A DNA stretch of 35,651 bases, from contig PWNM01000038.1 in the NCBI GenBank assembly GCA_003557825.1, positions 1 to 35,651 on the forward strand, in the 5' to 3' direction. This document shows, one piece after another, positions 19,544 to 25,817 of the stretch (position 1 is the first letter of the stretch; each line of letters opens with the position of its first letter). This stretch comes from Candidatus Hydrogenedentota bacterium (lineage in GTDB: Bacteria; Hydrogenedentota; Hydrogenedentia; Hydrogenedentales; SLHB01). Position numbers and translations under genes: made by a program. The notes under the pieces were generated by a model. The model saw nothing but the letters and a program-made list of their open reading frames with translations. It searched no databases and was not told where the DNA came from.

Positions 19544-20248
19544 TTATTGCGTCTCTCTCAACCGGGCGGCGGTGCGTTCCAGGGCGTTGCAGAGGGAAGG
19601 GAGGTTCACCGCACCGCTCTTGGGGGTGACGATGGAGGCGGTCAAAACCCCCAGGATGCGGTCGTCGCTGTCCTGGAGAAGCAGGCCAAGATCGACGACG
19701 CCAACAACATGCTGGCTCTGGCGGTGAAAGGGCTTTTTTGCGCGAACCGCTTCGCGCAGTCCCTTGGGGAGGCGAAGGTCCGCCGGCGTAGGCAGGGCAC
19801 CGCCGGCGGCGAGGATTGCGCCGGAGAGCGTGTCCTTGGGGGCAAACCGGGCTCCCGGTTGCAGGCTCAGGCGGACCAATCCTTCGCCGGGTATGTCGAG
19901 GATCATCAGGGCCGCATCGCCGTCGGGGATGCTGAGGTGGATCGATTGTCCGGTGTTCCGGGCAAACTCCAACAATGCGGGCTCCGCCGCACGGCGCAGG
20001 CGCAGTTGCGGGGGGTGGTGATTGGCAACGGCGAAGAGCCTTCCGGAGAGAATATACGCGCCGGAGGAGAGGTGCCGCAAATAACCCGTCTCCACGAGGC
20101 AGGCCAAGGGACGCTGCACCTCGGGAACGCCCAGGCTCATGCCCTGTGCAATGTGCGTGAGAGTGGCGGGTTCCTCCCGTCCGGCCATCCATTCGAGAAT
20201 TTTTAAACCACGGGCGAGTGCGGGGACGTGGGAGACGGATTTCTTCAT
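19544..20248 (-). CDS. IclR-family transcriptional regulator
   Basis: VPALARGLKILE..TLTHIAQ HTH; GQSIHLSI; divergent from the catabolic operon. Confidence 0.9.
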   Translation of the reverse strand: MKKSVSHVPALARGLKILEWMAGREEPATLTHIAQGMSLGVPEVQRPLACLVETGYLRHLSSGAYILSGRLFAVANHHPPQLRLRRAAEPALLEFARNTGQSIHLSIPDGDAALMILDIPGEGLVRLSLQPGARFAPKDTLSGAILAAGGALPTPADLRLPKGLREAVRAKKPFHRQSQHVVGVVDLGLLLQDSDDRILGVLTASIVTPKSGAVNLPSLCNALERTAARLRETQ

Positions 20249-20296
20249 CGATAAATTTTATTGCCAATAATAATCCGATCTGCAAGCTCTAAAAAC

Positions 20297-20962
20297 ATGA
20301 CCCGAATATCCGACCCCTCAAATTACGGCGACCGCCTGGAGGCCTGCTACTCCGGTGCGGTTTATGACACTCTGCGGTCCATGGGATTGCCGGACCAAAT
20401 CCTGCCGCGCACGATCCGACCGCTCGATGCGACCCGTCCGCTGGCGGGGCCGATTTTTACCTTCAGCGGTTATGCCGATCATACGGTGGACGGGCACACG
20501 ACGCTGCTGGAGTGGACGCGCATGCTGTCGAAGGCGCCCTCGGGCTCGGTCGTGGTTTGCCAGCCGAATGACGATACGCTGGCGCACATGGGTGAGTTGA
20601 GCGCGGAGACCTTTGTTTACAAGGGGGTGCGCGGCTATTTGTGTGACGGCGGCTGCCGCGACTCCGTGAGGATTTTGGAAACGGGGCTGCGGGTGTGGTC
20701 GCGCTACTACACGCCGCGAGACGTCGTGGGCCGCTGGGTGCCGGACCGTTTTGGCGAGCCGGTGGTGATTGGCGGAGTGACGATTCGCACGGGTGATTAC
20801 CTGATGGCGGACCGGGATGGAGCGCTCGTCATCCCGCAAGAGCATATTCAGGAAGTCACGGAAAAGGTGGAGGAAGTCTTGCGAACGGAGAACAAGGTGC
20901 GCACGGCGATTTTGGAGGGCGTCGATCCGGTCGAGGCTTATTTGAAATACCGCAAGTTTTAA
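20297..20962 (+). CDS. RraA-family protein / HMG-CHA-type pyruvate aldolase
   Basis: AVYDTL, AHMGELS, DGGCRD and GDYLMADRDG motifs; ATG at 20297. Confidence 0.88.
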   Translation: MTRISDPSNYGDRLEACYSGAVYDTLRSMGLPDQILPRTIRPLDATRPLAGPIFTFSGYADHTVDGHTTLLEWTRMLSKAPSGSVVVCQPNDDTLAHMGELSAETFVYKGVRGYLCDGGCRDSVRILETGLRVWSRYYTPRDVVGRWVPDRFGEPVVIGGVTIRTGDYLMADRDGALVIPQEHIQEVTEKVEEVLRTENKVRTAILEGVDPVEAYLKYRKF

Positions 20963-20966
20963 GGTC

Positions 20967-23316: not shown

Positions 23317-24174
23317 ATGATTGACACCCACCAGCACCTCATCTCTCCGGACCGCTTCACCTACGCCTGGGCGGCGGATGTGCCACAACTTCAGGGCGCT
23401 TTTACCTTGGATACGTATCAGGAACTCGCGTGCGACGCGGGCATTGAGGGCAGCTTGTTTATGGAGGTGGACGTGGCTCCCGCTGAATCCGCCGGAGAGG
23501 CGCGTTTCTTCTGCGAACTCGCGATGGACCCGGTGAACCGCATCCTCGGGGTGATCGCAGGTGCGCGACCCGAGGCAGAAGCGGGTTTTGAGGAGCATCT
23601 CGATGCCATTACCCATCCCAAACTGAAGGGTATTCGCCGCGTCCTGCATACCCAGCCGGACACGCTTTCCACGACCGCGCACTTCCGCGCCAATCTCCGC
23701 ATTCTCGGGCAACGGGGTTTACCCTTTGATTTGTGCATGCGGCAGGATCAGCACGCCCGCGCGCTCGACCTCATCCGCGCCTGCCCCGGGACTCAATTCA
23801 TCCTCGATCATTGCGGTGTCCCCGAGGTTGCGGCCAACGACGCTCCGGCGGGTGAGGGCTTTCAAGCGTGGCGGCAATCCATCCTCCGCCTCGGCGGTGA
23901 GTCCAACCTCTGCGGCAAACTCTCCGGCCTGACCACCTATGCGGCAGATTCCCAGCGAAACGCCAAAGCCTTGCAGCCCTACATCGACACCATGCTGGAG
24001 GCATTCGGCCCAACCCGCCTCGTCTGGGGCGGCGACTGGCCGGTCGTCAATCTCGGCAGCGGGCTTCCGCGCTGGTGCGAACTCACTCGCGAACTCATTG
24101 CCCCCCTGACTCCCGAAGAGCAGCAGATGATCCTTTCCGCCAACGCCCGCCGCATTTACGCTTTACACACATGA
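23317..24174 (+). CDS. Amidohydrolase_2 family protein, probable L-fucono-lactonase
   Basis: IDTHQH, GIRR, FILDHCG.P, KLSGL and FGP.RLVWGGDWPV. Confidence 0.88.
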   Translation: MIDTHQHLISPDRFTYAWAADVPQLQGAFTLDTYQELACDAGIEGSLFMEVDVAPAESAGEARFFCELAMDPVNRILGVIAGARPEAEAGFEEHLDAITHPKLKGIRRVLHTQPDTLSTTAHFRANLRILGQRGLPFDLCMRQDQHARALDLIRACPGTQFILDHCGVPEVAANDAPAGEGFQAWRQSILRLGGESNLCGKLSGLTTYAADSQRNAKALQPYIDTMLEAFGPTRLVWGGDWPVVNLGSGLPRWCELTRELIAPLTPEEQQMILSANARRIYALHT

Positions 24175-25181
24175 ACGCACACCTATCCGGCATCTTTGTT
24201 CCCAACATCGTTCCCTACGATGCACAGGGGCGTATTCACAAAGACGAACTGCGGCGCATCATCCGCTGGCTGGGCGACAAGGGCGTCACCGGATTTTATC
24301 CCAACGGCAGTATGGGCGAGTTTATCCGCCTGAGTTACGAAGAGCGCAAGCAAGTCGTCAAAATCGTCAGCGAGGAGGCCGACGGCCGTCCCGTCCTTGC
24401 CGGTGCGGCCGAGCCCAACGTCGATCTGGTCCTCGATATGTGCGCCCACTGTGCCGACCTCGGCTGCCGTGCGGTTTCCATCACCGGTCCTTACTACTAC
24501 AAGCTAACGCAGGAGAGCATTGAGGCGTATTTCCGCGAACTTGCCGCCAAGTCGCCTATCGACATTGTCATTTACAACATTCCCGCCTTTGCTAACGAGA
24601 TCAGTATTCCCGTGCTCAAGCGCCTCGCCCTCGATTGTCCCCGCATCGTTGGAACCAAAGACACCTCCCGCGACATGCCCCGCTACTTGCGGGTCTTGCA
24701 TGAAATCAAATCCCAGCGCCCGGACTTTTCCGTCCTCATCGGCTGGGAGGAATTACTCTGCGACGCCCTCTTCATGGGCGGAGACGGCGGCACACTCTCC
24801 AGTGCCGGAGTCGTCCCGGAAGTGATCATGAAGATTTACCATGCCGCCCGCAAGGGTGACTGGGAGAGTGCGAAACACGGGCAGTTTAAGCTCCTCGATC
24901 TGTTCGCCCTCATGGTCAATGCCCCCAACTTCCCCGAAGGCTTTCGCGCCGGTTATGAACTGCGCGGCTTCCATCCCGGAAAGGCCCGCTTCCCGCTCTC
25001 CGATTCGGAGCGCGAGCAAATGACCAGCATTCGTTCCCGCATCGCCTGCGTCCTCGCCGAATGCGGTTTCTCTGAAGCCGCCCACGCCTGTGTTTCCAAG
25101 CATCCCCGCCCCGATGCGATGCGTGCGGAGGTCGAGGAAATCGTGCGCCGGGTCATGGCCTCGCTGCAAACCCCGCGCTAA
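24171..25181 (+). CDS. DHDPS/NAL-family class I aldolase (probable 2-keto-3-deoxy-L-fuconate aldolase) with C-terminal BMC encapsulation-peptide-like helix
   Basis: NGSMGEF, GPYY, IYNIP and VGTKDTS (Schiff-base Lys); extra tail PRPDAMRAEVEEIVRRVMASL. Confidence 0.88.
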   Translation: MNAHLSGIFVPNIVPYDAQGRIHKDELRRIIRWLGDKGVTGFYPNGSMGEFIRLSYEERKQVVKIVSEEADGRPVLAGAAEPNVDLVLDMCAHCADLGCRAVSITGPYYYKLTQESIEAYFRELAAKSPIDIVIYNIPAFANEISIPVLKRLALDCPRIVGTKDTSRDMPRYLRVLHEIKSQRPDFSVLIGWEELLCDALFMGGDGGTLSSAGVVPEVIMKIYHAARKGDWESAKHGQFKLLDLFALMVNAPNFPEGFRAGYELRGFHPGKARFPLSDSEREQMTSIRSRIACVLAECGFSEAAHACVSKHPRPDAMRAEVEEIVRRVMASLQTPR

Positions 25182-25184
25182 CCC

Positions 25185-25817
25185 ATGAATTCCTGTTTCG
25201 CCGGCCTTGAAACCGCGTTCATTAGCGTGACCTCTCTGGTCGCCGACTGCATGGCCAAAGCCGCCGACATCCGTATCCTCGGGTTCGAGCCAACCGGTAT
25301 TGAGACCATTCTTATCCGCATCGCAGCCGATCGTCCCGACTCCCTCCGGGCGGCCCTCGACGCCGGTCGTGCCCGCGCCATCGAGCTGGGCATACCGGAG
25401 CCCTCCGAGGTGCTCCTCGCCCGTCCCGATCCCGCGCTCTTCCGCCTCAACGACAATCCCAACACCATCAACGCTATCTACGGCGGACGCGAGGAAATGC
25501 GCCCTGATGACAATCCGAATCCACCCACCAAAAATCCACTTATGAAAAACAAAGCCATCGGTATACTCGAAACCCAGGGACTCACCGCCGTCCTTGAAGC
25601 GACCGACGCAATGCTCAAATCGGCCGACGTCCAGCTCGTCGGCAAAGAAAAGATCGGTGCCGCCTACGTCGCCATCACCATCTCCGGCAACGTCGCCGCC
25701 GTAAAAGCCGCAATCGAAGCCGGTGCGCAAGCGGTCGGCTCGCTCGGCAAGCTCATCGCCGCCCACGTCATCGCCCGTCCACACGAAGAGTTGACACGGA
25801 TCCTGCCAAAATTGTGA
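25185..25817 (+). CDS. Bacterial microcompartment shell protein with two BMC domains (divergent N-terminal, canonical C-terminal from 25542)
   Basis: C-domain AIGILETQG..AVLEATDAMLKSADV..KIG..G.VAAVKAAIEAG..AHVIARPH; N-domain GLET..ADCMAKAADI..RAALDAG..LLARP. Confidence 0.92.
   Translation: MNSCFAGLETAFISVTSLVADCMAKAADIRILGFEPTGIETILIRIAADRPDSLRAALDAGRARAIELGIPEPSEVLLARPDPALFRLNDNPNTINAIYGGREEMRPDDNPNPPTKNPLMKNKAIGILETQGLTAVLEATDAMLKSADVQLVGKEKIGAAYVAITISGNVAAVKAAIEAGAQAVGSLGKLIAAHVIARPHEELTRILPKL

Follow-up and report, generated by a model that had tools for sequence, protein, structure and literature searches.

Microcompartments of the Planctomycetes/Verrucomicrobia type (PVM) reportedly serve L-fucose and L-rhamnose. 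The signature enzyme of the characterized PVM organelle is a class II aldolase acting on phosphorylated sugars, as stated in parts of Axen 2014 (PMC4207490) and Sutter 2021 (PMC8217296). Campylobacter jejuni has a fuc locus with a divergent IclR gene (cj0480c), dapA, a split uxaA, the short-chain dehydrogenase/reductase (SDR) gene cj0485 and the amidohydrolase gene cj0487, according to a portion of PMC12566272. Satellite loci known as EUT modules accompany HO/SPU microcompartments and are interpreted in part of Sutter 2021 (PMC8217296) as a functional extension that offers the resident bacterial microcompartment (BMC) an alternative substrate. A non-phosphorylated fucose pathway in sponge-associated Verrucomicrobia was reported by Sizikov 2020, according to a passage of PMC12263773 that cites it. 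We analyzed contig PWNM01000038.1 (35,651 nt; the whole contig is called the window below) from the assembly of a Candidatus Hydrogenedentota bacterium, in which the region 19544-25817 contains a minus-strand IclR gene diverging from a tight plus-strand operon whose last gene encodes a BMC shell protein, as identified with Pfam and NCBIfam. In our judgment this is probably a non-phosphorylative fucose operon that ends in a portable module, cargo plus tandem shell protein (BMC-T), of a PVM-type microcompartment.

The operon shares with the C. jejuni fuc locus (cj0480c-cj0490) the divergent IclR gene, the DapA-like aldolase, the split UxaA, the SDR fucose dehydrogenase, the amidohydrolase and the tight organization. 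The C. jejuni locus, as presented in that portion of PMC12566272, differs in having no shell gene and in carrying an aldehyde dehydrogenase (AldDH) and transporters that are not in the window operon, whereas the window operon adds an RraA-like gene, a tail on the aldolase and the BMC-T gene. With the PVM organelle it has in common the sugars and the toxic intermediate, lactaldehyde, and genomes carrying the aldolase plus BMC-T module own such a core, with three BMC-P (pentamer) genes and with encapsulation peptides at the N-terminus of the AldDH and at the C-terminus of the class II aldolase. The PVM signature enzyme is, on the other hand, a PF00596 aldolase acting on phosphorylated ketoses, while the module has a putatively tagged PF00701 aldolase that would end a non-phosphorylative route, encoded with its own BMC-T at a distance from the core; the genome of the window yielded no core. 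EUT modules, as outlined in the cited part of Sutter 2021, are likewise satellites made of a signature enzyme set plus one dedicated BMC-T, so that the idea of a satellite with a signature enzyme is already known from them. They differ, in the same account, in carrying EutABC and a permuted EutL-type BMC-T, as against a single class I aldolase that would be fed by a cytosolic oxidative pathway and a non-permuted tandem BMC-T here, and the type of host microcompartment also differs. No paper tying a DHDPS-family or 2-keto-3-deoxy-L-fuconate aldolase, or the non-phosphorylative route, to a microcompartment was found in a literature search that did not cover the supplements of Sutter 2021 or Sizikov 2020, which may show the module.

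The aldolase and BMC-T pair

The last two genes of the operon encode a 336-aa class I aldolase of the DHDPS/NAL family (24171-25181, plus strand; PF00701, 176 bits) and a 210-aa BMC-T protein (25185-25817, plus strand), with a 3-nt spacer between the aldolase stop and the BMC start (TAA-CCC-ATG). A scan of one genome per species gave more than 460 stretches with relatives of the shell protein, and the best 80 loci, labelled almost all Verrucomicrobiota (e.g. Opitutales, Akkermansiaceae, Chthoniobacterales, Luteolibacter), were analyzed. In 70 of these loci the shell gene was immediately preceded, in the same orientation, by a DHDPS-family gene (at least 45% identity); in the remaining ten there was no upstream sequence (three), an inverted order (one), an aldolase 6 kb away (one) or no aldolase (five). 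The gap between the two genes was mostly -1 to 26 nt in the 43 cleanly called pairs.

The flanks of the pair varied. Among the 80 loci, upstream genes of the window type were found as UxaA-C homologs in nine, fucose-dehydrogenase-type SDRs in eight and RraA-like homologs (at least 50% identity) in seven, all seven of these last with a UxaA-C homolog and six of them with the SDR. Representative loci carried sugar-acid and fucose genes and also transporters, the alternative flank comprising an SDR, an enolase-superfamily dehydratase, a sodium:solute symporter, a lactonase, a rhaM-type mutarotase and GH29. Two different dehydratase families, UxaA and the enolase superfamily, feed the aldolase plus BMC-T unit. 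No conserved gene was found downstream of BMC-T in the 80-locus comparison. Since the upstream flanks vary and no downstream gene is conserved, the constant unit is aldolase plus BMC-T. This pair is a conserved module, new here, and has the appearance of a portable one, consisting of a putatively tagged aldolase and its dedicated BMC-T.

The shell protein matched PF00936 twice in one chain (25.1 and 86.3 bits; 104.5 bits in all), with a divergent N-terminal and a canonical C-terminal domain. The AlphaFold2 (AF2) model of the monomer (mean predicted local distance difference test, pLDDT, 89.7; predicted TM-score 0.87) contained two complete beta-alpha-beta-beta-alpha-beta BMC units. The best Foldseek matches were the tandem BMC chains of 6ner, a synthetic Haliangium shell (TM 0.70-0.74 on query /0.79-0.83), followed by PduT-type BMC-T proteins. 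The two folds and this ranking indicate that the shell protein is a non-permuted tandem BMC-T. Mean column identity in the family was 62% (43 sequences), the pore-loop motif GKEKIGAAYV of the canonical C-terminal domain was invariant in the same alignment, and the N-terminal domain, divergent as it is, was conserved inside the family. By analogy with EUT modules, as described in part of Sutter 2021 (PMC8217296), this BMC-T may act as a pore for a keto-deoxy acid and pyruvate.

The linker between the two domains (residues ~92-109) carried a conserved P-N-x-x-N-P-L-Y-G-G-R-D/E-Q/E-x-x-P-x-D motif, and the lowest model confidence (pLDDT 55) fell just past it, at residues 111-120. A reading of the 210-aa ORF as a 92-aa BMC-H preceded by spurious sequence was ruled out, its N-terminal half being conserved in 43 homologs and folding as a BMC domain.

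The closest solved relatives of the aldolase were the KDG aldolase 4uxd and YagE (3n2x), 2-keto-3-deoxy-sugar-acid aldolases of about 297 residues. K163 and Y135, which are catalytic, and the G46-S47-x-G49-E50 motif were invariant in an alignment of 42 sequences. The enzyme would be a 2-keto-3-deoxy-L-fuconate aldolase that forms pyruvate and L-lactaldehyde.

Past the catalytic domain the paired aldolases continued into a linker variable in length and composition and then into a helix. Counted from the end of a conserved x-G-F/Y motif, the tail comprised 15-66 aa (median 38). In the window aldolase the AF2 model (pLDDT 90.1) placed an amphipathic helix at residues 314-333 (25110-25169, plus strand), a putative encapsulation peptide, with a low-confidence linker block at 311-320 (pLDDT 62). 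The helix had hydrophobic residues at i, i+3, i+4, i+7, i+8 and i+11, in the window aldolase VEEIVRRVMASL. This pattern was scored in the last 32 residues, with the other ORFs of at least 150 aa from the same loci as background (n=612). The 12-residue pattern was present in 35 of 43 paired aldolases and 75 of the best 120 database homologs, as against 4 of 612 background ORFs, and its 9-residue core in 40/43 and 17/612, respectively. All of these 120 homologs were 331-367 aa long and are therefore long forms.

Encapsulation peptides consist of a terminal amphipathic helix of about 18-20 residues behind a poorly conserved linker, and the aldolase tail is built in this way. We also compared 22 PVM-type core loci, from 20 module-holding genomes, one closed genome (G111) and one relative of the window, in which the same hydrophobic spacing was seen by eye at the N-termini of the core AldDH and the C-termini of the class II aldolase. 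The N-terminus of the core AldDH in the closed genome reads ...VRHVVEEVLKRL, the C-terminus of its satellite aldolase ...VDKIVDEVLRSL. The spacing shared with the termini of core enzymes is the strongest single argument that the aldolase may be cargo of the same organelle. A complex prediction with three BMC-T copies and aldolase residues 288-336 returned 'no answer' (score 0.00, mark 0.32), which is evidence neither way.

Co-occurrence with core microcompartments

BMC-P was detected in 74 of the 80 genomes with loci (37/40 + 37/40), mostly as three clustered copies elsewhere in the genome. In the closed chromosome of G111 about 2.5 Mb separate the module, at 3.51 Mb, from the core, at 0.95 Mb. 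This core encodes two to three BMC-H/T proteins, acetate kinase, one BMC-P and the AldDH, as well as a further two BMC-P, a class II aldolase and a protein resembling lactate/malate dehydrogenases. As a baseline we used an even sample of 151 genomes of the order of G111, in which a full-length family member of at least 290 bits defined a module holder. BMC-P was present in 70 of the 151 and the module in six, all six of them BMC-P positive; in this sample the module therefore occurs only where a core exists. Taken together, our best explanation, which we hold to be probably correct as a whole, is that the module serves as a distal satellite of a PVM-type microcompartment in the bacteria where it is frequent, which carry Verrucomicrobiota labels. 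As a general design, a microcompartment of this type supplied with lactaldehyde by an oxidative fucose branch is well supported.

Several results weigh against this explanation. Only 6 of the 70 BMC-P-positive genomes of the order sample hold the module, which must therefore be accessory and dispensable for PVM function. Six of the 80 genomes had no detected BMC-P (loci L022, in genome G060, L027, L041, L059, L060 and L076; all metagenome-assembled genomes, MAGs, of unknown completeness), and in five of them, L059 being the exception, the aldolase stood directly upstream of the shell gene. One of the six, L022, has the operon most like that of the window, IclR gene included. The genomes are related, so that the counts overstate independence, and labels of MAGs can be wrong. 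The aldolase tail is called a putative encapsulation peptide on a sequence pattern and a predicted helix.

These points bear on the alternative that the helix is an oligomerization or regulatory element instead of a targeting signal and that BMC-T acts outside a closed shell. The absence of a detected pentamer from the six genomes and from the bin of the window would fit it; the variable linker followed by a terminal helix of about 20 residues is, however, the anatomy of an encapsulation peptide, the hydrophobic spacing is common to core AldDH and class II aldolase termini of the same genomes, and pentamers were found in 74 of 80 genomes, the misses being MAGs of unknown completeness. We regard this alternative as very improbable.

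The genome of the window adds to the adverse evidence. Its assembly is 80.5% complete, in 646 contigs, with an estimated contamination of 1.04%, and it contained no PF00936 gene other than that of the window and no PF03319 gene. For comparison, BMC-H genes are carried by 17 of 37 genomes of the same Hydrogenedentota family, and the sole locus annotated in the family, in the relative G019 (L083, C39: 8590-13599), is a PVM-type core. It encodes, in order, a 211-aa protein whose C-terminal BMC domain is weak, BMC-H, BMC-P, an AldDH that begins ...IEAVVRQVMERM, a 129-aa protein, a tandem BMC-T, BMC-P and a class II aldolase that has an amphipathic tail at its C-terminus. When proteins of this relative were used in tblastn searches of the window assembly, BMC-P, AldDH, the second BMC-T and the accessory core proteins had no match, BMC-H matched only the shell gene of the window, and the class II aldolase matched two PF00596-like aldolases outside any BMC context. 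A single PF00171 locus, itself weak, was found in the assembly. An ortholog of the window aldolase was found in none of 40 relatives (E <= 1e-40) and a full-length BMC-T in none of 94 other genomes of the phylum sample; as the pair was not found among these relatives, the synteny support comes from another phylum.

The class II aldolases, on contigs C18 and C2, were considered as remnants of a broken core and ruled out, their neighbors being unrelated and their tails without the pattern.

A cytosolic pathway would account for these observations if BMC-T and the aldolase tail were baggage of a transferred operon in a host without a microcompartment, lactaldehyde being handled by cytosolic reductases or dehydrogenases. 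In agreement with this possibility, the 80.5%-complete assembly yielded neither BMC-H nor BMC-P nor a core AldDH, four Fe-ADH family loci in the genome could reduce lactaldehyde, the operon shows signs of horizontal origin (see below), and the C. jejuni pathway, as presented in PMC12566272, runs without a BMC. Against it, neither the shell gene nor the tail is damaged, the 3-nt spacer couples the two genes tightly, about one fifth of the genome is unassembled, and PVM-type shell genes occur in 17/37 genomes of the family, so that a resident core is plausible in the lineage. We consider this alternative rather unlikely, and the case for a microcompartment link is weaker in this genome than for the satellite as a general design.

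The first-pass annotation, made on the sequence of the window, had proposed an oxidative fucose route wired into a microcompartment through a plug-in satellite. The tail, the aldolase plus BMC-T synteny in 70 of 80 loci and BMC-P in 74 of 80 genomes sustain this proposal, whereas in the 80.5%-complete assembly of the window genome the search for a PVM core that it called for came back empty; the synteny survey that it suggested likewise succeeded across genomes and failed among the relatives of the window (0/40 for the aldolase, 0/94 for BMC-T).

The pathway genes and the substrate

The genes of the operon were identified by Pfam and NCBIfam profile searches of the window ORFs, which confirmed every gene of the tight operon described by the first-pass annotation (RraA-like, split UxaA, SDR, lactonase, DHDPS aldolase and BMC, with a divergent IclR). 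The several ATGA overlaps that it mentioned were read directly in the sequence at 21272, 22477 and 24171.

The IclR-family regulator (19544-20248, minus strand; HTH_IclR 37.5 bits, IclR_C 25.4 bits) is positioned as FucR is in C. jejuni and has a 55% identical copy in the same position in locus L022. It is separated from the operon by an AT-rich divergent intergenic region read directly (20249-20296; 48 nt with ATG 20297 as the assumed RraA-like start). The first operon gene encodes an RraA-like/class II pyruvate-aldolase-like protein (20261-20962, plus strand, probable start ATG 20297; PF03737, 94.7 bits), for which a search of solved structures gave distant relatives only. The UxaA/GarD-family dehydratase follows in two pieces, both on the plus strand: an N-terminal one of 102 aa (20967-21275), which had no Pfam match and matched TIGR03248 positions 3-80, and a C-terminal one of 402 aa (21272-22480; GD_AH_C 265 bits, GD_AH_second 92.8 bits). 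As no equivalog model exists for the dehydratase it was assigned at the family level, UxaA/GarD in two pieces as in C. jejuni; from its context and the hypothesis put forward for cj0482/0483 in a portion of PMC12566272, it may be an L-fuconate dehydratase. The SDR (22477-23283, plus strand) scored 346.4 bits with the FucosDh equivalog NF052481, above the curated cut-off of 300, and is an L-fucose 1-dehydrogenase, in line with the earlier FucX-like call. The Amidohydro_2 lactonase (23317-24174, plus strand; PF04909, 160.5 bits) matched the L-fucono-1,5-lactonase model NF052480 with 107 bits, below its cut-off of 400, and would be an L-fuconolactonase.

The two fucosidases reported earlier in the window were recovered as a GH29 alpha-L-fucosidase at the far end of the contig (448-1755, plus strand; PF01120, 274 bits) and a GH95 alpha-L-fucosidase (26258/26318-28672, plus strand; catalytic domain 558 bits). 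The GH95 gene lies about 500 nt 3' of the shell gene and is probably a separate transcript. A promoter and terminator scan gave nothing above shuffle expectation and no plus-strand terminator between the aldolase and BMC-T. No tRNA was found by a tRNA scan, and there is therefore no obvious integration site. Among most window ORFs of at least 150 aa, no pentamer, aldehyde dehydrogenase, Fe-ADH or PduL family turned up, which agrees with the earlier statement that pentamer, aldehyde and alcohol dehydrogenase and phosphotransacylase genes are lacking, and no PF03319 was found in the window. The locus has one BMC-T beside pathway enzymes and no BMC-P, and thus belongs to the class of loci with shell genes, with or without enzymes, and without BMC-P. 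None of the PVM features (PF00596 class II aldolase, CoA-acylating AldDH, BMC-P triplet) was found in the window, which places it outside the PVM type.

The same mechanism may operate on another substrate, derivatives of L-rhamnose, D-arabinose or L-galactose replacing or joining those of L-fucose and giving lactaldehyde, glycolaldehyde or glyceraldehyde. Some sources name members of the aldolase family 2-dehydro-3-deoxy-D-pentonate aldolase, and other loci carry the enolase-superfamily dehydratase, of unassigned specificity, and the rhaM-type mutarotase. The SDR of the window is, in contrast, above the L-fucose dehydrogenase equivalog cut-off, the window has two fucosidases and related loci repeatedly include GH29, and we consider a substrate other than, or additional to, L-fucose unlikely.

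Two other observations were made around the operon. A gene of the D-isomer 2-hydroxyacid dehydrogenase family (29855-30889, minus strand) lies 4 kb 3' of the shell gene. Two paralogous 236-aa secreted proteins, 44% identical and with a PEP-CTERM-like end (VIPEPSAYAA...RRR), are encoded at 12295-13005 and 29102-29812, both on the minus strand, and flank the stretch of GH10, the operon and GH95.

Origin of the operon and proposed function

The bin is Hydrogenedentota by RpoB, not Verrucomicrobiota. Its RpoB (C175:2216-5980) was 81% identical to that of a genome of the family and 55-57% identical to those of four Verrucomicrobiota genomes, and all named relatives of the protein were Candidatus Hydrogenedentes/Hydrogenedentota (77-84% identity). 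The window aldolase, on the other hand, shared 87-90% identity with proteins from metagenomes, of which the nearest with a name is labelled Opitutales. With a GC content of 0.611, the genome having 0.568, the operon ranked among the top 3.2% of 6-kb windows. We conclude that the operon was most likely acquired horizontally, apparently from Verrucomicrobiota.

All five 6-kb pieces of the contig were tetranucleotide outliers in the bin (92nd to 99.4th percentile). A misplaced contig, from a Verrucomicrobiota cell of the same sample whose PVM core sits on contigs outside the bin, would make both the missing core and the cross-phylum transfer artefacts of binning. The tetranucleotide deviation is consistent with such an origin, as are the closeness of the operon proteins to Verrucomicrobiota-labelled proteins and the PEP-CTERM and PATR proteins and many glycoside hydrolases on the contig. 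A gene adjacent to the operon argues for a Hydrogenedentota origin instead. It encodes a 416-aa protein without Pfam or NCBIfam match (17753-19003, minus strand, 540 nt from the operon) of a multi-copy family, present in 16 of 24 Hydrogenedentota family genomes (up to 53% identity, up to four matches each) and with four matches in the bin, the gene of the window and, on other contigs, two copies of full length and a short fragment; the family was not found in five Verrucomicrobiota genomes. The best GH29 relatives outside the window were at most 66% identical, and the few named ones came from Clostridia, Acidobacteriia, Anaerolineae and Armatimonadota, with no close Verrucomicrobiota-labelled relative among the named matches; given these mixed phylum labels, the GH29 search taken alone neither supports nor excludes misbinning. 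The estimated contamination of 1.04% also speaks against it. No useful match was found in family members or Verrucomicrobiota genomes for the TonB-plug protein, the GH94 or the 399-aa ORF. From the distribution of the 416-aa gene and the relatives of the GH29, a mosaic carbohydrate-use island in a Hydrogenedentota genome is therefore favoured, and misbinning is quite unlikely.

The first part of the window (1-10000) had a GC content of 0.43-0.46 with patches of 0.52-0.54, was the strongest tetranucleotide outlier (99.4th percentile) and carried GH29, two heparinase II/III-like proteins and GH88. As a whole, the contig resembles a mosaic glycan-use island.

In the mechanism that we propose for the module as a satellite of a PVM-type microcompartment, the fucosidases would free L-fucose, which in the cytosol the SDR would oxidize to fuconolactone, the lactonase would convert to fuconate and the split UxaA dehydratase would turn into 2-keto-3-deoxy-fuconate. 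The keto-deoxy acid would then enter the PVM-type shell, presumably through the co-encoded BMC-T, and the tail-anchored class I aldolase inside would cleave it to pyruvate and L-lactaldehyde. Pyruvate would presumably also pass BMC-T, while the CoA-acylating AldDH, phosphotransacylase and kinase of the core would consume the lactaldehyde. A second signature aldolase would thereby be added beside the class II aldolase of the core. Gene identities, synteny, the tail pattern, the pentamer co-occurrence and the taxonomic mismatch are observations, on which the substrates, encapsulation, pore role and direction of transfer proposed here would depend.

We put forward, as a possible though doubtful extension, that a portable two-gene cassette which crossed from Verrucomicrobiota to Hydrogenedentota routes the last step of a cytosolic oxidative pathway into an existing PVM-type shell of the recipient. 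Provided that the transfer did take place, the recipient family is one in which a core of compatible appearance is frequent; this bin yielded none. Should the cassette be confirmed, horizontally mobile modules of a signature enzyme and a pore would extend microcompartments through broadly compatible encapsulation peptides, and two aldolases of unrelated chemistry would work within a single shell of PVM organelles.

PVM microcompartments are taken to mark fucose/rhamnose specialists in marine and soil carbon cycling, and are modelled with one phosphorylative class II aldolase entry. If the satellite is what we propose, a second, non-phosphorylative entry would change the genome-based inference of fucose flux and lactaldehyde detoxification, and a class I DHDPS-family aldolase would join the known signature enzymes of metabolosomes. 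Engineers of microcompartments would gain a natural, compact cargo-plus-pore module, and the apparent transfer between phyla bears on the modularity of these organelles.

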